Source of the DNA: Candidatus Jordarchaeales archaeon
Lineage (GTDB): Archaea > Asgardarchaeota > Jordiarchaeia > Jordiarchaeales > Freyrarchaeaceae
DNA: 19,182 nucleotides
Direction: 5' to 3'
NCBI GenBank assembly: GCA_038858525.1
Contig: JAWCFL010000008.1
Span: 23,493 to 42,674 of the forward strand
The notes under the pieces are model-generated. The model saw nothing but the letters and a program-made list of their open reading frames with translations, was not told the origin of the DNA and did no database searches. Both the position numbers and the translations under genes were made by a program. Positions within the stretch are counted from its first letter, which is position 1, and every line of letters begins with the position of its first letter. Shown here in pieces: positions 6,938 through 19,168 of this stretch.

Positions 6938-8809
6938 GTGACCTTCCACGTGGAGGGAGGTGTAAGCTGCGCGTCTCCTCTGGAGGATGATGGAGTGTGG
7001 CGTGAGTTTTTTGGCAGGCTCGAGGGGGCTCAGCTCGGTTCCGAGGTAAGAGACAGGTTTCTAGGGGCTCTAGCTGTGGCCTCAGCCGTTTATGGTGACG
7101 CTGAAAGAGTAATAGGGCTACTGGACAGGGTAAGGGATGCGTATGCTTACGTGGATGCTTCCCTGAGCGCGGCTGCTGAGCTCTGCTGGAAGGGCCTCGT
7201 GGAGAAGGTGGATGTGCTAATCGGGGAGTGCTTAAGGAGGATGGCTGAGCTAAGTCGAGGCGAAGCTGGGGCGCTAGCTCCAAAGCTTGCTTACGTCAAA
7301 GCGCTTGCGGAGGGGGTAGATGAGGGGGTGAGCGTGGCTATGAGGGAGGAGGGGGTATGGCGTTGCCGCTCAGTCCTAGCTGTTGCTTCAGCCATAATTG
7401 AGAGGGGTATAGATGGACTCGATGCTGTTCTTGAGGAGTTTGATTCACGCGTGAGACTGGTATTCGACGAGGAGAAGGCGGGCCTCTTAATAGAGGCGGG
7501 AAAACTTCTGCTTGAAGCTGGAAAAGCTGATGAGGCTAGGGGGATGCTTAGGAGAGCGGTTGAGGTAGCAATGAACATTTACGATGAATTCTCTAAAAGG
7601 ATGATCTTGTCGAGTTTAGTCCCCGCAACTATTAGTGCAGGTATGCTTAAGGAAGCCGTGGTTCTCTCCGGCATTTTGGGTTTAGCAGGGTTACATTACC
7701 TTGAAAGGATCGGTGAGGCTGCCGGTGTGAACGTTGTTAAAATGCCTTTTGATGCACTCGACGCGTATGGCAGGGCGGTTCTGGCCTTAAGGGGGGCCGA
7801 GGTAAGCCTTAGCCGCGAGGCTGTCGCCAAGGCGGCTGAGCATGTCAGGTTGCTTTCGGGGCGTTCATGGTACCCTGAGCTCTTGGCGAGGCTTGCCGTT
7901 GTTCAAGCGAAAACTGGAGAGGAGAAGGAGGGTGAGGCTAATGTCGGAGTGGCTGTTGAGCTGGCGAGTGGGGCGCAGCTTGTGAAGGTTGCCAGTGTGA
8001 TCGCTGAGTGCTATGCAAGCCATGCTGAGAGGGCGCTTGAGAAGGCCTGCAGAGAAGCTGAGGGGCTAAGGAAAGAGGAAAAAATTCTAGTGTTGATGAG
8101 TGCTGCAGTGGCGTGGTCAAGAATTGGGAGGGAAGAAAAGGCTGAGGAGTGCTTTAAGGAGGCGGTTAAGCTGTTGGTTGAGCTCGGGTCGAGTGAGCTC
8201 CTCGTTGAGCTTTCAAGACACCTAGCCCTGTCAAGAAAGCCGGAGGCGGCGCTCAGGTCTTTAATGTGGCTTCTAGATGATGAAAGCAAAGTAGTGCTCC
8301 TAGCCCAAACAGCCTCTATCCTGGTGGAGGAGGGTAGAGTAGAGGAGGGAGTGAAGCTAGCTGAGGAGGCGCACCTTACGACGGGACGAGGAGTAGCGGC
8401 ATTCTCCTCCATGGCGCGGCTAGCGGTTTCCCTCTCGAAGAAGGGGAGGGTGCGAGAGGCGCAGAAAATTGCTCCCATAATAGCTGATGGAATAATGAGT
8501 GAGGCTTTTGGGAACAACTCAGAAGTCCTTAGGCTTCTCAACTCAGCTTTGGAGCTTGCTCCCCGCTTAAGGTTACTAGTCAGAGAGGGGGGAGAAAGAG
8601 CCTCACTGATTCTGCTCAATAGGGGAGGAGGGTGCGTTAACATTGACGTTAAGCTAGGCGGTTTAACGATGAACCTAAGTAGATTGGATGCAGGGGACGC
8701 TGCACATTTAAAGATGGACTCTTCATTGCCTTTTGAATCGGTTAGCGTGAAGTTTGAGGACGCTTTTGGCGTTGAGGAGTGCGTGTTTAAGCTGAAGGCT
8801 TCGAGGTGA
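6938..8809 (+). CDS. TPR-like alpha-solenoid protein with a C-terminal Ig-like beta-sandwich
   Basis: Repeated helix pairs of the type LLxxLAxxxAKxGxxxEA (e.g. LLARLAVVQAKTGEEKEG, LLAQTASILVEEGRVEEG, MARLAVSLSKKGRVREA). The last ~83 aa (8558-8806) alternate like beta-strands with an LLNRGGG motif. The likely start is GTG 6995 (SD GGAGGA), because 6938 is only 3 nt from the TATA. Confidence 0.8.
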   Translation: MTFHVEGGVSCASPLEDDGVWREFFGRLEGAQLGSEVRDRFLGALAVASAVYGDAERVIGLLDRVRDAYAYVDASLSAAAELCWKGLVEKVDVLIGECLRRMAELSRGEAGALAPKLAYVKALAEGVDEGVSVAMREEGVWRCRSVLAVASAIIERGIDGLDAVLEEFDSRVRLVFDEEKAGLLIEAGKLLLEAGKADEARGMLRRAVEVAMNIYDEFSKRMILSSLVPATISAGMLKEAVVLSGILGLAGLHYLERIGEAAGVNVVKMPFDALDAYGRAVLALRGAEVSLSREAVAKAAEHVRLLSGRSWYPELLARLAVVQAKTGEEKEGEANVGVAVELASGAQLVKVASVIAECYASHAERALEKACREAEGLRKEEKILVLMSAAVAWSRIGREEKAEECFKEAVKLLVELGSSELLVELSRHLALSRKPEAALRSLMWLLDDESKVVLLAQTASILVEEGRVEEGVKLAEEAHLTTGRGVAAFSSMARLAVSLSKKGRVREAQKIAPIIADGIMSEAFGNNSEVLRLLNSALELAPRLRLLVREGGERASLILLNRGGGCVNIDVKLGGLTMNLSRLDAGDAAHLKMDSSLPFESVSVKFEDAFGVEECVFKLKASR

Positions 8810-9509
8810 AGTAGCATTCAAGCCTGCCTGCAAGCGTAGCCCTTGCTATCCTGTCCGTGGCGTTAATTGCTTCCTCGAGAAGGCTCACTTGAACTCCTGG
8901 GACGCCGTAGGCTATGAGCAGGGCTTCCTGTGTCTCCTCGGTTATCTTTGTCCTTTCAGAGTCCCTGTAGGGGTATATCGACACAACTCCCTCTTCATCT
9001 GACACCACTATTTCGTTTCCGTTCAGGGGCTTCGGGGAGGACATGCCTATGCCTTGAAATGGTTCCCCGGGCTCCGCAAATCTCACTGTGAGACCACCCC
9101 TAATCTTGCCCATGTCATACGCTCCCAGGGTGACGCCAGTTATGGCTGACGCGAGATTGTAGGAGTTAACGAACTTGTTCACGCGCCATATGTTCCCGCC
9201 CCCCAGTATTCTCCGGATAAGAGCTTCGGAGGCGGGTCTCTGCTTCGTTGGGTCTATTGATAAACGCCAGTAGAAGTCCCTGTAGGCTCTCACCACGGGA
9301 TCATGCTTAAGCGACTCGAGCGTGTACCTTCGCCTTATCTCCTCGAATACCTCAGCCTCCAGACGCTCAACCTCATCAAACCGCTTCTCAGCACTAATAT
9401 CTGTGAACTTTGCTATAACCATCACAAGCTGGGGGTGAGCGAAACCGACCCTAGGATGCCACTCTACTCTAATGAAGGGGCGCTGTTGGGCTGACACCAA
9501 AACCACCAC
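8787..9509 (-). CDS. Stand-alone B3/4 (PheRS beta editing-like) domain protein
   Basis: DPVVRAYRDFYWRLSIDPTKQRPASEALIRRI, VNSYNLASAITG, GAYD, GEPFQGIG, NEIVVSDEEG, YPYRDSERTKIT. The start may be GTG 9497. Confidence 0.9.
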   Translation of the reverse strand: MVVLVSAQQRPFIRVEWHPRVGFAHPQLVMVIAKFTDISAEKRFDEVERLEAEVFEEIRRRYTLESLKHDPVVRAYRDFYWRLSIDPTKQRPASEALIRRILGGGNIWRVNKFVNSYNLASAITGVTLGAYDMGKIRGGLTVRFAEPGEPFQGIGMSSPKPLNGNEIVVSDEEGVVSIYPYRDSERTKITEETQEALLIAYGVPGVQVSLLEEAINATDRIARATLAGRLECYFTSKPSA

Positions 9510-9573
9510 AAGGCGGTTGGCAAGTAAAAGTAAAATATGTTTTTGGTCTGTAAAGCTTAGTGGAGGGGTGAAG

Positions 9574-10329
9574 TTGAAAGTCGTGTACCATGAAAAGTAC
9601 AGGACTGTTTACTCTGGTGACCCGGCTTCAGCTCCGGGGAGGATCGAGGCGATATATGAAGCGTTGAGAGACAATTTCGAGTTTGTCGAGGCGAAGCCGG
9701 CCAGTGAGGAGGACGTCAGGCTGATACATAACCAGCACCACTTAGATTACGTTAAGCGGGACAGCGTCCTATTCGAGGTGGCATTACTCGCCGTCGGCGG
9801 AGCCATAATGGCTTCTGACATAGCTATGAGCGGCGAGGCTGCCTTCGGCCTTATAAGGCCGCCCGGGCACCATGCGAGTCCTGGGTCAAGTTGGGGGTTC
9901 TGCTACTTTAACAATATAGCGATAGCCGTTGAGAGGCTCATAAGAAAGGGCGAAGTGGAAAGGGTGCTTATAGTGGACTTCGACCTCCACTACGGTGACG
10001 GGACGGCTAACGCCTTCTCCGGGCGGACGGATGTCAAATACATACATCCTGAGGGGGACAGCAGGGAGGTGTACATGGAGAACACTAAGACGTCTCTCTC
10101 GCTGCTAAGAGGAGAGTTTGACCTGTTAGGCGTGTCAGCCGGGTTCGACAGGCACGTAGAAGACTGGGGTGGACTTCTCACCACTGATGACTACAAAGAG
10201 CTGGGCTCCCTTCTAAGAGAGTTCTCGGAGGAGAAGTGTAAAGGAAGAAGGTTCGCCGTCCTAGAGGGGGGATATAACCACAATGTTCTGGGGAGAAACG
10301 TGAAGGCTTTCCTCGAAGGATTCAAGTAG
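9574..10329 (+). CDS. Histone deacetylase / acetylpolyamine amidohydrolase family protein (compact, 251 aa)
   Basis: RPPGHHA, GFCYFNN, DFDLHYGDGT, SAGFD, LEGGY. Start TTG 9574 (or GTG 9568) follows SD GGAGGGGTG; the track start 9472 would overlap the divergent gene. Confidence 0.92.
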   Translation: MKVVYHEKYRTVYSGDPASAPGRIEAIYEALRDNFEFVEAKPASEEDVRLIHNQHHLDYVKRDSVLFEVALLAVGGAIMASDIAMSGEAAFGLIRPPGHHASPGSSWGFCYFNNIAIAVERLIRKGEVERVLIVDFDLHYGDGTANAFSGRTDVKYIHPEGDSREVYMENTKTSLSLLRGEFDLLGVSAGFDRHVEDWGGLLTTDDYKELGSLLREFSEEKCKGRRFAVLEGGYNHNVLGRNVKAFLEGFK

Positions 10330-15848: not shown

Positions 15849-16266
15849 ACGAACCCCTCACAGCCCTTTTCCCATTGAAAGCCACTCACCTAACAAACAC
15901 CGCATCACTCAACTGGCAAACCATAGATAAGCTAACAAACCCATGGATTTCCTAAGGATACCATCCAGCAATCATCCTGAAAAATTCCTTTGTGAGCCAA
16001 GAGCCTACGTCCGCTCTCCAAACTCCTAAAATCCAAGCACCATTTAAAGGTTTCCAGTCTCCCTAATCAGTAAAAACCCTTCCACCAATCATGGCGATAG
16101 GCGAAGACGCAAACTTAACGTTCAATAAGTGGACGAGTAAGTGTAGCGAAGAGTTAAACACCAACAGAGCACGAGGTATAATGGATAAAACGGAGCACGA
16201 AAACAACTTGTCCCAAGGCGAGAAACTGATAAGCTAATCGAAGCATCTTCCCCATTCCTTTATTTC

Positions 16267-16638
16267 TCAGCAATTATCTTCAATAAATGATTCAGCGTAT
16301 TTCAAGAGGGCATCTTTATCGTCTTTCTCCAACGCTTTTATGACGTTTATAACATCGAGCCCGGGAGCGTACTTCTTTATAAGCTCTCCTAGAATGCAGA
16401 TTAAAAAAGCCTTAGCTGCGCACTCAAGCTTTCCGAGCGCCATAACCAGCCGATTATACGACTCCTTAGGTTTTTCCAGGAAACCCTTTACTATTTCGGT
16501 CATGCTCTCAGAGCCAAACTCCTCCGTTACGGCCTCGAAAACGCTTTTAAAGTAGAAGTAACCTTGAGTCTCTTTAAGAGAATTTATAGTTTCGATGAGT
16601 TTTGTTGCTATTCTTTCATAAATGATCGTTGAGTTCAT
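16267..16638 (-). CDS. Small helical protein resembling the archaeal DUF3227/NitrOD5-type domain
   Basis: 123 aa. The pattern FLEKPKESYNRLVMALGKLECAAKAFLICILGEL matches my recollection of the P-x2-F/Y-x3-L-x3-G core of that family. The family call is tentative. Confidence 0.6.
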   Translation of the reverse strand: MNSTIIYERIATKLIETINSLKETQGYFYFKSVFEAVTEEFGSESMTEIVKGFLEKPKESYNRLVMALGKLECAAKAFLICILGELIKKYAPGLDVINVIKALEKDDKDALLKYAESFIEDNC

Positions 16639-16776
16639 AATTGATCACCGTAACACATGCGATTTAATTTAACATCAACGTTACTTATAAATATTATCAT
16701 AAAATCACTAGTTACCTTGTAAATACGTTATGTTTAATGCAATGTTTTTTATTATTTATTGTTTTTTCCGTTTAAA

Positions 16777-16791
16777 TCATAAAAATTATGA
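16777..16791. promoter_or_regulatory. Inverted repeat TCATAA-N3-TTATGA, candidate transcription-factor site
   Basis: Perfect 6-bp arms in the AT-rich spacer between divergent genes. Confidence 0.35.
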
Positions 16792-16909
16792 AGAAATAAA
16801 GAATAACGATGATTTTTTATTTGAGGATGGGTTCTTTGACTTTTCAATCTTAAGTCATGAGAAATTTTTTTCTTTTGTCGCGTTGCTTTAGTGTTATTGT
16901 TGTTGCTGG

Positions 16910-17341
16910 TTGGTGGTGAAGGTGACTGTTGTTTCGAGGCGTGTCAGGTTTTCGACAAAGGGGGAGGTCGACATGGTCGACGTCACTCACATGGTTCAGA
17001 GGGCTGTCGAAGAGTCTGGTTTGAAGAAGGGAATTGTGACTGTCTTCGTGCCTGGCTCGACGGGCGCTGTGACCACGATAGAGTATGAGCCTGGACTCCT
17101 GAAGGATTTCCCGAGGATGCTTGAAAAAATAGCCCCGAGGGGTGAGGAGTATGAACATCACTTGAGGTGGCATGACTGGAACGGGCACAGCCACTGCAGA
17201 GCTGCCCTACTTGGTCCAAGCCTCACTGTTCCCTTCGAGGATGGGAGGCTTCAACTTGGGACGTGGCAACAAATAGTATTTGTGGAGCTTGACGTTAAGC
17301 CTAGAGAGAGGGAGCTGATACTTCAGTTGATCGGCGAGTAG
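16910..17341 (+). CDS. yjbQ: YjbQ/UPF0047 family protein (secondary thiamine-phosphate synthase-like)
   Basis: GIVTVFVPGSTGAVTTIE, YEHH, DWNGHSHCRAALLGPS, LQLGTWQQIVFVELD, PRERE. The start may be GTG 16916. Confidence 0.92.
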   Translation: MVVKVTVVSRRVRFSTKGEVDMVDVTHMVQRAVEESGLKKGIVTVFVPGSTGAVTTIEYEPGLLKDFPRMLEKIAPRGEEYEHHLRWHDWNGHSHCRAALLGPSLTVPFEDGRLQLGTWQQIVFVELDVKPRERELILQLIGE

Positions 17342-18237
17342 TGTCTCGCCGCCTGAGGAGGCATGCCATGAAGGTTGATAGGAAGGTGCTTAGACGAGCT
17401 GTGGATGAATTGGGGTTTGAGAGCCTTCTCCACTTAATGTCCAGTTGGGGGGTTAGTGTCAGGGGAGTCAATGATAAAGATGAGGCTTTTAGGAGGATTT
17501 GGGAGGCGGGGGTGACGCCGGTTAGGCTTGAGGACATTTTGGCTGTTCTTGACTTGGAGCAGAGCCTTCCATTTACTTTTTGGCGTGTCTACACGTTTCA
17601 GCGTCCAAGTGGTGCCATTAGGGTTGGGACAGTGGAGAGGAGGCTTAACAGGGAGATGAGCAGGAGGGCTGAAGGGGAGAGGGCAGGCTACTTTAGGGCT
17701 CTGAGCATTGGTAATGGGGTAATTTGTGTTTTTTACAGGTTTGAAAGGGAAGAGCTGGTTGGCGAGAGGGGGGGAGTTAGGATAGTTCGCAGGATTTGCC
17801 ACTTGAAATCTATTGTAGGTAATGGCTTGCTCTTGGTTGAGGAGGACGAGTGGCTTGAGTGGGTTTTAGAGCTGCTATCGATAGCTTTGGGAGCGGAGCT
17901 TAACTCTGTGACTTTTCCCCCGTTCTTGCTTAGAGAGCTTGCTGAGCGGAACGTGGTTAGGCGTGCTGTGGTCTTTCTTGATGGGCAGATAACGGGTGCT
18001 CCGGGGCTGAGCAGGGTAGTTGTAGAGGGGGAGAACGTTGTTAAGGGGGCTGAGAAGCTTAGGTCGCGGCAGGAGCTGAACTTTTGGTCTGCTGGGCCTC
18101 TCCTTGAGATAGAGACTGACATGTTTATGTTCTCGTCTAGCGGGCGGGTCAAAATTAAAGATGGGAAAGGAATGTTTGGGGTGAAAGAAATGCTACGGCT
18201 CATTGAGGATATATTAAAATCCCAGGAGAACGCTTAA
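17341..18237 (+). CDS. Hypothetical protein, putative CENP-N/Chl4-like (eukaryotic signature candidate)
   Basis: The CDS itself is well supported: 298 codons, TAGTG overlap with the yjbQ stop, and an alternative ATG 17368 with SD GAGGAGG. The CENP-N resemblance comes from manual motif alignment only (see findings). Confidence refers to the CDS; I put the homology at about 0.6. Confidence 0.85.
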   Translation: MSRRLRRHAMKVDRKVLRRAVDELGFESLLHLMSSWGVSVRGVNDKDEAFRRIWEAGVTPVRLEDILAVLDLEQSLPFTFWRVYTFQRPSGAIRVGTVERRLNREMSRRAEGERAGYFRALSIGNGVICVFYRFEREELVGERGGVRIVRRICHLKSIVGNGLLLVEEDEWLEWVLELLSIALGAELNSVTFPPFLLRELAERNVVRRAVVFLDGQITGAPGLSRVVVEGENVVKGAEKLRSRQELNFWSAGPLLEIETDMFMFSSSGRVKIKDGKGMFGVKEMLRLIEDILKSQENA

Positions 18238-18448: not shown

Positions 18449-19168
18449 TTGGAAAGGGTGAAGACAGGAGTTGAAGGGCTTGACAGGATTCTTGGCGGAG
18501 GAGTTCCTAGAGGCTCAAGCGTGCTGGTGACTGGCGGCACAGGCACAGGAAAGACGACGCTTTCAATGCAGTTCCTTATGGAGGGATTGCAGAACGGCGA
18601 AAATTGCCTTTTGGTGACGTGTGAGGAGGAGCCGCGCAGGCTCTACATGGAGATGAAGCAGCTCGGATGGGATTTTGAGAAATTTGAAAAAGATGGGAGG
18701 CTCATCGTGATAGATGCGGCAAGCACTAAGGCCGGCATGCCAACTGCCACCACGTACAAGGACCTTCAGCCGAGGAGCGCCAACATAGACATGGATTTAG
18801 TTGTGCTCATAGGCAAGGCGATAAGGGAGTACAATGTGAAGAGGGTTGTCCTTGACTCTGTGCCAGCTTTAGCCTTAAGGGTTGGGAAGCCGGAAGCTCT
18901 AAGGGAACTACTTTTCAGAGTGTACTCTATGCTGGAGAGGTTCGATTGCACAAGCTTCGTCGTAACTGAGATACCGGAGGGAGAAGGCTTCCTCAGCAGG
19001 TATGGCGTGGAAGAGTTTCTCTCAAGCGGAGTAATAAAGCTCTCCCTTCAGAGGGAAGGAGGCAAGTGGGTTAGGAAGATACAGGTGGTAAAGATGCGGG
19101 GAACAAGTCATGACCTCAACGAACATGTCTTCGAAATAACAAAGGAAGGAATAAAGCTTAAGGATTAA
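18449..19168 (+). CDS. Single-domain KaiC/RAD55-like RecA-superfamily ATPase
   Basis: VKTGVEGLDRILGGGVPRGS, Walker A GGTGTGKT, catalytic CEEEP, Walker B RVVLDS, VVKMRGTSHD arginine-finger motif. Confidence 0.93.
   Translation: MERVKTGVEGLDRILGGGVPRGSSVLVTGGTGTGKTTLSMQFLMEGLQNGENCLLVTCEEEPRRLYMEMKQLGWDFEKFEKDGRLIVIDAASTKAGMPTATTYKDLQPRSANIDMDLVVLIGKAIREYNVKRVVLDSVPALALRVGKPEALRELLFRVYSMLERFDCTSFVVTEIPEGEGFLSRYGVEEFLSSGVIKLSLQREGGKWVRKIQVVKMRGTSHDLNEHVFEITKEGIKLKD

Follow-up and report, generated by a model that had tools for sequence, protein, structure and literature searches.

Where did the DNA-proximal core of the eukaryotic kinetochore come from, and does any archaeon encode a protein of the kind from which it may have been built? 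The still open question of how the kinetochore arose is raised in concrete form by a gene on contig JAWCFL010000008.1 of a Candidatus Jordarchaeales archaeon (assembly GCA_038858525.1). The window, by which we mean the whole 19,182-nucleotide stretch of this contig that was analysed (positions 23,493 to 42,674), encodes towards its right end a 289-amino-acid (aa) protein. An earlier note, made from the sequence alone, had proposed this protein as a putative archaeal homologue of the kinetochore protein CENP-N/Chl4. Predicted structures place it in the fold class of RdgC, CENP-L and CENP-N. Our preferred explanation, taken as a whole, is that the protein is a basic DNA-clamp homodimer of this fold, encoded by a core gene of many Asgard lineages, and the best current candidate for the source lineage of CENP-L and CENP-N; we give this a probability of about 0.62.

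Parts of this picture have precedents. From the structure of the human constitutive centromere-associated network (CCAN), the CENP-L/CENP-N pair is held to descend, by duplication, from a homodimeric singleton that bound DNA and was related to RdgC (PMC9235857), and the structural kinship of both Iml3/Chl4 and CENP-L/N with RdgC has already been published (PMC9235857, PMC11077077). In the survey by Tromer et al., CENP-L/N had no significant relatives by sequence, and they could be assigned only to the TBP-like fold class, which is a broad one (PMC6601020).

The open reading frame (ORF) at 17341..18237 on the forward strand, as described in the earlier note, is present in the window, but its start moves 27 nt downstream to ATG 17368, and the residue numbers given previously are 9 too high. 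In 9/9 close orthologues, the protein starts at the methionine that is residue 10 of the 17341 frame. The ATG lies 7 nt downstream of a GAGGAGG sequence and 26 nt past the stop of the upstream yjbQ gene; given the orthologue starts and this upstream sequence, we take it, and not GTG 17341, as the start of the 289-aa product (Table 1). The gene is the sole match to its family in the genome. Searches of Pfam, NCBIfam and PADLOC gave no match at a meaningful level for the 289-aa protein (PADLOC returned noise only), and a single-sequence search of the PDB gave no significant relative. The family is basic, with a median isoelectric point (pI) of 9.15, and of 9.3 in its central LN-homology domain (LNHD).

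The fold of this protein is the firmest result of the analysis. We built two AlphaFold models without templates, one of the window protein (AlphaFold2, 20-sequence alignment) and one of a Heimdall orthologue that is 15% identical to it. The model of the window protein, with a predicted local distance difference test score (pLDDT) of 86 and a predicted template modelling score (pTM) of 0.83, has three parts: residues 1-69 form four helices, residues 70-182 a sheet domain of beta-alpha-beta type, and residues 183-289 an alpha/beta C-terminal domain with a long terminal helix. In a Foldseek search of the PDB, its 26 best matches are all CENP-L, CENP-N/Chl4, Iml3 or RdgC (E values from 3e-7 to 2e-3), while the 27th has an E value of 0.036. 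When the model was compared by VIA-align with 48,161 representative chains, CENP-L scored highest (Z 12.8), followed by CENP-N and RdgC (11.4 each), Chl4 (10.9) and Iml3 (10.7), with the next chain at 6.2. The CENP-L chain 7PKN_L, which has the same LNHD and dimerisation-domain fold, aligns over 210 residues (Foldseek E 3e-7, Z 12.8). A search of the Swiss-Prot part of AFDB returned the same families.

The distant Heimdall orthologue gives a similar picture. Its model (pLDDT 92, pTM 0.89) has 23 best Foldseek matches that are all CENP-N, CENP-L, Chl4 or Iml3 (E 6e-5 to 9e-3), led by CENP-N, with RdgC at E 0.04-0.06; its VIA-align Z scores are 10.6 for CENP-L and 9.0 for RdgC. In both models, then, an LNHD is followed by a dimerisation domain, and RdgC/CENP-LN proteins are the only significant PDB neighbours. 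On these two template-free models, the window protein is a member of the RdgC/CENP-L/CENP-N fold class, and the class assignment made in the earlier note stands. The collinearity with CENP-N that it had described also holds at the level of the fold, since the helical N-terminal domain, LNHD and dimerisation domain come in the same order. Whole-chain alignments with CENP-N begin at residues 1-6 of both proteins (5-6 in the Swiss-Prot search), while those with RdgC begin only at model residue 63-67 (67 in the Swiss-Prot search). The N-terminal domain of the window protein, a possible pyrin (death) fold, resembles SAP-type four-helix bundles too, with Z scores of 5-6. The more specific claim of a CENP-N/Chl4 homologue thus survives as a fold-class assignment, without a preference for CENP-N over CENP-L: the window protein is matched best by CENP-L, and RdgC ties with CENP-N at Z 11.4.

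At the level of sequence, the link is fainter. A profile of 20 family members (A2), searched with HMMER against 177,635 PDB sequences, has human CENP-N as its top match (E 0.036), with profile positions 10-127 aligned to CENP-N 7-135. This alignment pairs the family's two tryptophans (...SWG and FWRVY) with those of CENP-N ILKAWD and KVWDVF, reproducing the first two of four blocks that the earlier note had aligned with CENP-N and Chl4; the third and fourth did not reappear, as a profile of the C-terminal domain reaches no CENP or RdgC chain in the PDB at E<=10. When 54 members were compared singly with 24,736 Pfam models (E<=10), the most-matched families were CENP-N (three members, best E 0.053) and RdgC (two members, best E 0.034). 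Among the neighbours found with protein language-model features, the clusters of CENP-N (0.80-0.81) and CENP-L (0.77) are the only eukaryotic families. These signals are all sub-threshold, and we read them as weak but real support for membership of the superfamily, not for orthology to CENP-N. Most of the residues singled out beforehand are well conserved among 54 orthologues (289-aa numbering: W72 83% identical, Y75 93% aromatic, G221 100%, V224 85% and G227 91%), but the first tryptophan falls below 70%.

How might such a protein act? Predicted as a two-copy complex, it scored 0.55 against 0.00 for the best control. Among proteins with solved structures, 20/30 that are pairs of one chain reached this mark, as did 1/23 that are single chains; these reference counts hold only roughly because we used our own alignment for the prediction. 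Three runs share at least 88% of contacts, with a partner pLDDT of at least 80. The contacts fall into two self-symmetric patches. In the first (residues 209-231), strand 216-221 of each copy meets that of the other (217:217, 218:218) within the most conserved motif of the family; in the second, the hairpin 126-143 meets that of its mate (131-133 to 141-143) and packs on the partner's N-terminal helices 3-14 and 51-61. The protein is therefore predicted to form a two-fold homodimer with a pair of symmetric interfaces, which resembles the RdgC ring, where the two dimer interfaces are known as 'horseshoe' and 'gate' (PMC2965237). By analogy, the pairing of the C-terminal domains would correspond to that of the CENP-LN dimerisation domains (PMC9235857).

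In the mechanism that we propose, one closure of the two-fold symmetric homodimer would be made by the edge strand of the C-terminal domain pairing with itself, and a second by the long LNHD hairpin packing on its mate and on the partner's N-terminal domain. The dimer would then encircle or straddle one DNA duplex, in the manner of the RdgC ring and the CENP-LN vault. DNA binding is suggested by this analogy and by the basic pI. The CENP-L/CENP-N pair would have arisen by duplication from a single-copy lineage of the Asgard type. There is one gene per genome, with no paralogue, and no match to the CENP-L model in the host genome, as distinct from a CENP-L/N heterodimer; a single-copy gene and a predicted homodimer fit the idea, already raised in the earlier note, of a form predating the CENP-L/N duplication.

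The family is widespread in Asgard archaea. Close homologues (50-100% identity) are labelled Freyarchaeota and Jordarchaeales. A HMMER search of 1.84 billion representative sequences found 13 proteins at E<=0.001, all of about 290 aa, and the named members among them (Freyarchaeum, Promethearchaeota, Helarchaeota and Odinarchaeia) are Asgard. One member comes from a metagenome-assembled genome labelled Deferrimicrobium, yet this genome is placed in the Asgard phylum of the genome collection. Homologue labels and genome placement both identify the host as an Asgard archaeon, settling the question of eukaryotic contamination that had been raised. The family profile matches 107 of 400 Asgard species genomes (115/400 with a broader profile), nearly always with one copy each. 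It is near-universal in about 15 GTDB families (e.g. 29/31, 21/22, 11/12, 11/12, 6/6 and 4/4 genomes) from the Heimdall, Jord/Frey, Odin, Njord and Hel lineages. Carriers include Heimdallarchaeaceae (with the closed Ca. Heimdallarchaeum endolithica and aukensis genomes), other 'Heimdallarchaeota', Njordarchaeia and Odinarchaeia; the closest relatives of eukaryotes are among the carriers. In a maximum-likelihood tree of 50 members, 11/11 GTDB families with several members are monophyletic, and the Heimdall-labelled families form one clade (support 92/86). The tree follows taxonomy and therefore has the pattern of a vertically inherited core gene.

Several results weigh against this explanation, and some concern distribution and sequence. 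Family profiles find no match in GTDB family f20 (135 genomes, the largest sampled), f14, f19 or Baldrarchaeia, and in the families that hold Thorarchaeota the family profile matches only 2/89 genomes; divergence may account for part of this non-detection. The CENP-N match is limited to the narrower A2 profile and is lost on widening to 54 sequences or narrowing to single domains: the 54-member whole-length profile (A3) and the C-terminal (A4) and N-terminal (A5) profiles reach no CENP or RdgC chain among the PDB sequences at E<=10. None of the Pfam models for CENP-N (PF05238, gathering score 25 bits), CENP-L (PF13092) and RdgC (PF04381) reaches threshold for the protein, and searched against the six-frame translated genome they gave no match (for CENP-N, at E<=10).

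Other contrary points concern the fold and the dimer. The full-length fold is also found among bacterial proteins in the AFDB clusters and the ESM Atlas, including a 297-aa Bacillota family with template modelling scores of 0.62/0.61 over residues 4-286. Further matches of the same fold in these collections are N-terminal modules of DEAD/ResIII helicases, GAPS4b_N, DUF4868, WYL proteins, phage RdgC and a Nitrososphaerota family. Since bacterial and archaeal proteins share the full-length architecture, the N-terminal domain is not unique to CENP-N and the Asgard family, and because the three-part fold occurs in bacterial families it does not establish a special sister relation with CENP-L/N. 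In language-model features, too, bacterial clusters (0.92-0.96) are nearer than those of CENP-N or CENP-L. The dimer result may reflect likeness rather than binding, because RdgC and CENP-LN dimers have already been solved, and a putative central pore is suggested by the contact pattern. A sister relation between the Asgard family and CENP-L/N is thus plausible but unproven.

Outside the counted family, weak matches to the N-terminal domain only (E 0.002-0.004) occur in ORFs of 214 and 416 aa (G081:C33:5812-6168, G090:C290:2962-3330, G246:C161:108481-108675, and in genomes G240 and G241); these may be relatives of the N-terminal domain or noise. The 415-aa ORFs of f20, which have such a weak match, were considered as divergent homologues, but hhalign gave a probability of 11% and they were not counted as members.

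A stricter version of the kinetochore connection would make the protein a direct, unduplicated Asgard orthologue of CENP-L/N that already worked on archaeal chromatin, either by reading histone-DNA or by marking a chromosomal locus. The top structural matches of two distant family members are CENP-L/N, the N-terminal domain is collinear with that of CENP-N, which is also the top PDB sequence match, and the gene is near-universal in Heimdallarchaeia and vertically inherited; moreover, the predicted homodimer suits a pre-duplication state and the genome encodes a histone. However, RdgC ties with CENP-N in the geometric score of the window protein, the whole architecture is common to bacterial families, and the one archaeal histone gene detected in the host genome is unlinked to the CENP-L/N-like (LN-like) gene. 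We regard strict orthology as a tentative possibility at rather less than even odds, and prefer the broader explanation of a clamp from the source lineage.

The features of the locus, and of related loci used in the comparisons below, are collected in Table 1.

Table 1. Coordinates of the LN-like gene, its domains and its neighbours. Positions are those of the window unless a locus label (L) is given.
Feature	Position	Strand	Basis or remark
yjbQ (UPF0047) gene, upstream	16910..17341	+	Probably co-transcribed; adjacency only in Jordarchaeial family
In-frame GTG extension, probably untranslated; contains Shine-Dalgarno-like GAGGAGG (17355-17361)	17341..17367	+	Orthologue starts, local sequence
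Gene for 289-aa protein of predicted CENP-L/N-RdgC fold	17368..18237	+	ATG start, TAA stop 18235-18237; nine orthologues and start context
Predicted N-terminal four-helix domain, residues 1-69; lines up with CENP-N N-terminal helical ('pyrin') domain	17368..17574	+	Model secondary structure, structural and HMMER alignments
Predicted LN-homology (TBP-like) beta-sheet domain, residues 70-182; conserved W72/Y75, long hairpin 119-151	17575..17913	+	Model, structural alignments, conservation
Predicted C-terminal dimerisation domain, residues 183-289	17914..18234	+	Model, structural alignment, dimer prediction
Most conserved motif of the family, G210...G243; G210, G213, G221, R234 and G243 invariant in 54 sequences	17995..18096	+	Orthologue alignment
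Strand 216-221; in the predicted dimer it meets the same strand of the partner at the two-fold axis	18013..18030	+	Pairs 217:217, 218:218 and 219:217 have the lowest expected error
Single-domain KaiC-family ATPase gene, downstream (PF06745, E 1e-71)	18449..19168	+	Adjacency only in Jordarchaeial family
Ras-family GTPase directly upstream of LN-like gene, example loci	L005:2431-3006, L040:2754-3353, L025:2416-2967 (and 12 other loci, outside the window)		
Zn-ribbon/winged helix-turn-helix protein, adjacent	L044:3276-3677, L043:3112-3516, L037:5004-5447, L034:4957-5400		
Zn-ribbon/winged helix-turn-helix protein, one gene removed	L031:3015-3404		

We compared gene neighbourhoods across 50 loci, calling ORFs of at least 80 aa. 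Only one neighbour recurs between classes: a small GTPase of the Ras family (PF00071, E 2e-55), whose gene lies directly upstream of the LN-like gene in 15/50 loci. These loci span six GTDB families; the two genes are divergent in Odin, f26, f15 and the Hel family f17, and co-directional in the Heimdall families f11 and f32. The adjacent GTPases are intact, keeping the P-loop, NKxD and SAK motifs, as well as DIAGQ in Odin, f26, f15 and f17. Chance adjacency of a GTPase would be expected at about 1% per genome by our own arithmetic (9 paralogues, 1.4 Mb). The best-hit rank of the adjacent GTPase is ambiguous: it comes first in 2/5 genomes (of 9-25 paralogues), takes third place among 26 in one, and stands midway down a list of 67 in another; because this left orthology uncertain, we built a tree of the neighbour GTPases with 20 non-adjacent paralogues from three genomes. 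Here the neighbours from Odin, f26, f15 and f17 form one clade (90/85), with one nested pair of paralogues, and those from f11 and f32 form a second. The label 'adjacent' changes three times on this tree against a mean of 10.5 after shuffling, a difference that is inflated by near-copies. In one closed Odin genome (G303, L024:823-1358), the neighbour GTPase is split by a TGA into two ORFs of 94 and 83 aa. Two further genomes of this genus (G300 and G302) have it intact; the split could reflect a pseudogene or a sequencing error.

We take the pairing of GTPase and LN-like gene to be genuine. Such repeated pairing is unexpected for a DNA clamp, and perhaps the protein is instead mainly a partner of the GTPase (its effector, regulator or platform) whose LNHD/TBP-like sheet serves as a protein-binding surface. 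The 15 loci in six families, the clustering of adjacent GTPases on the tree, and the two of five genomes in which the adjacent copy is the best of 9-25 paralogues all speak for this. It nevertheless seems unlikely, as no GTPase stands beside the gene in ten other families, the window's own included; moreover, the proteins of the family are basic, and its strong structural relatives are all DNA-binding.

The pairing can also be set beside the DNA clamp. In human CCAN, the pseudo-GTPase CENP-M contacts the CENP-LN dimerisation domains (PMC9235857), a parallel that we offer as a lead only. In its fullest form, the Asgard protein would be an unduplicated forerunner of the CENP-L/N vault that already worked with a small GTPase, and the gene pair would prefigure the CENP-M/CENP-LN contact. 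We think this quite unlikely as it stands, though if true, part of the DNA-proximal core of the kinetochore would predate eukaryotes.

Other neighbours are more local. One or two genes from the LN-like gene, at L005:3170-3625 and in six other Odin/f26 loci, is a 150-aa winged-helix protein of E2F/DP type (PF02319, E 5e-10), a eukaryote-type DNA-binding domain. A full-length Rpb5 with an N-terminal restriction-endonuclease-like domain is encoded directly upstream and co-directionally at L028:245-829 and in other loci of the Heimdall family f13. Five families (four that are Heimdall-labelled and one Njord family) have, upstream of the LN-like gene and co-directional with it, a gene for a protein of 130-148 aa with weak Zn-ribbon/winged helix-turn-helix matches; at L044 its stop overlaps the start of the LN-like gene. 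A PDCD5-type dsDNA_bind protein is another recurrent neighbour. We considered whether the E2F/DP-like winged helix, the Zn-ribbon/winged helix-turn-helix protein, dsDNA_bind and the neighbour clusters c3 and c6 might be kin, but hhalign shows no relation. No histone or membrane-protein partner was found beside the Asgard gene among the scanned neighbour ORFs of at least 80 aa, a size cut-off that would miss a minimal histone. The surroundings of the gene are of a housekeeping kind, with yjbQ, Rpb5, the genes for ribosomal protein S25 and a tRNA methyltransferase, and a pyruvate:ferredoxin oxidoreductase operon.

These housekeeping neighbours bear on one further explanation, in which the family would belong, as an Asgard offshoot, to the RdgC-like proteins that are mobile or linked to defence (such as lambda RexA, GAPS4b and those of DUF4868/KwaB type), and would have no particular connection with the kinetochore. 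Clusters bearing GAPS4b_N are among the nearest by language-model features (0.90-0.91), the fold matches in AFDB and the Atlas include DUF4868, WYL, helicase/ResIII fusions and phage RdgC, and phage lambda RexA appears at rank 24 in the Foldseek list of the Heimdall model. Besides its housekeeping surroundings, however, the gene is single-copy, near-universal within its lineages and congruent with taxonomy; there is no meaningful PADLOC match, and no conserved restriction, helicase or toxin partner adjoins it. We therefore consider a defence origin of this kind very improbable.

A few other features of the window stand apart from the LN-like gene. Positions 16001-17000 have a GC content of 0.385, against about 0.50 elsewhere. 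On the reverse strand, a 123-aa ORF without family match (16267-16638) is kept at the same position in 5/5 loci examined of the window's GTDB family, f1. At 8787-10329, the predicted ORFs of a B3/4-domain protein (reverse strand) and a histone-deacetylase-family protein (forward strand) overlap and are divergent, and the histone-deacetylase match falls in two stretches.

Full-text literature searches gave no paper in which a member from Asgard or other archaea is connected with CENP-L/N. The link of CENP-L/N to a homodimeric RdgC-like singleton has been published (PMC9235857); the present analysis adds a candidate for it from Asgard archaea. Also new are the map of named lineages, the congruent tree, the predicted two-interface homodimer as mapped onto the conserved motif, and the pairing with a GTPase gene. 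A single-copy, vertically inherited Asgard protein with this predicted fold is a concrete candidate for the pre-duplication singleton that can be tested by experiment, and the GTPase offers a second testable lead. Should the ancestry fail, this is still an undescribed and widespread Asgard family without a Pfam model, likely a nucleoid-associated protein.

How does the Asgard protein compare with its known relatives? CENP-L/Iml3/Fta1 (PF13092; 7PKN_L, 4IT3) is the best structural match of the window protein and has the top VIA-align Z for the Heimdall orthologue. In both CENP-L and the Asgard protein, the LNHD is followed by a dimerisation domain, and CENP-L dimerises through this C-terminal domain. 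CENP-L lacks the N-terminal four-helix domain that the Asgard protein has; it also pairs with its paralogue CENP-N within a 16-subunit eukaryotic complex, whereas the Asgard protein comes from a single-copy gene, and a homodimer is predicted for it. CENP-N/Chl4 (PF05238; 6EQT, 7PKN_N, 6QLD_N) shares the domain order of the Asgard protein from residue 1 and is the only family reached in the PDB by a sequence profile (E 0.036). The Asgard protein is shorter than CENP-N/Chl4, without the long linker, and has no known counterpart of the recognition of the CENP-A L1 loop by CENP-N.

RdgC (PF04381; 2OWL, 2OWY), of about 300 aa, has the LNHD and dimerisation core in common with the Asgard protein (Z 11.4), but not the N-terminal helical domain, and it is a weaker match for the Heimdall orthologue (E 0.04-0.06 vs 6e-5 for CENP-N). 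It is a DNA-encircling homodimer with two symmetric interfaces, and the predicted Asgard contacts follow the same logic (PMC2965237). RdgC is proteobacterial and modulates RecA, while no link to RadA was seen for the Asgard gene. An RdgC-like protein of Bacillus and Halobacteria, encoded in 'RdgC histone' operons, bears extra small N- and C-terminal domains (PMC11390915). We assume that these proteins are the unnamed Bacillota/Methanobacteriota clusters of about 295-310 aa that are nearest to the Asgard protein by language-model features (0.93-0.96); the Bacillota cluster of 297 aa is one of the closest in shape as well. The HMMER search of 1.84 billion representatives at E<=0.001 did not reach them. 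In contrast to these operons (PMC11390915), the Asgard gene has no conserved histone or membrane-protein partner among adjoining ORFs of at least 80 aa. Phage lambda RexA, GAPS4b_N and DUF4868 share the fold class of the Asgard protein (PMC11077077). Proteins of these three kinds are patchy, carried on mobile elements and paired with effectors, whereas the Asgard family is a core one and vertically inherited.

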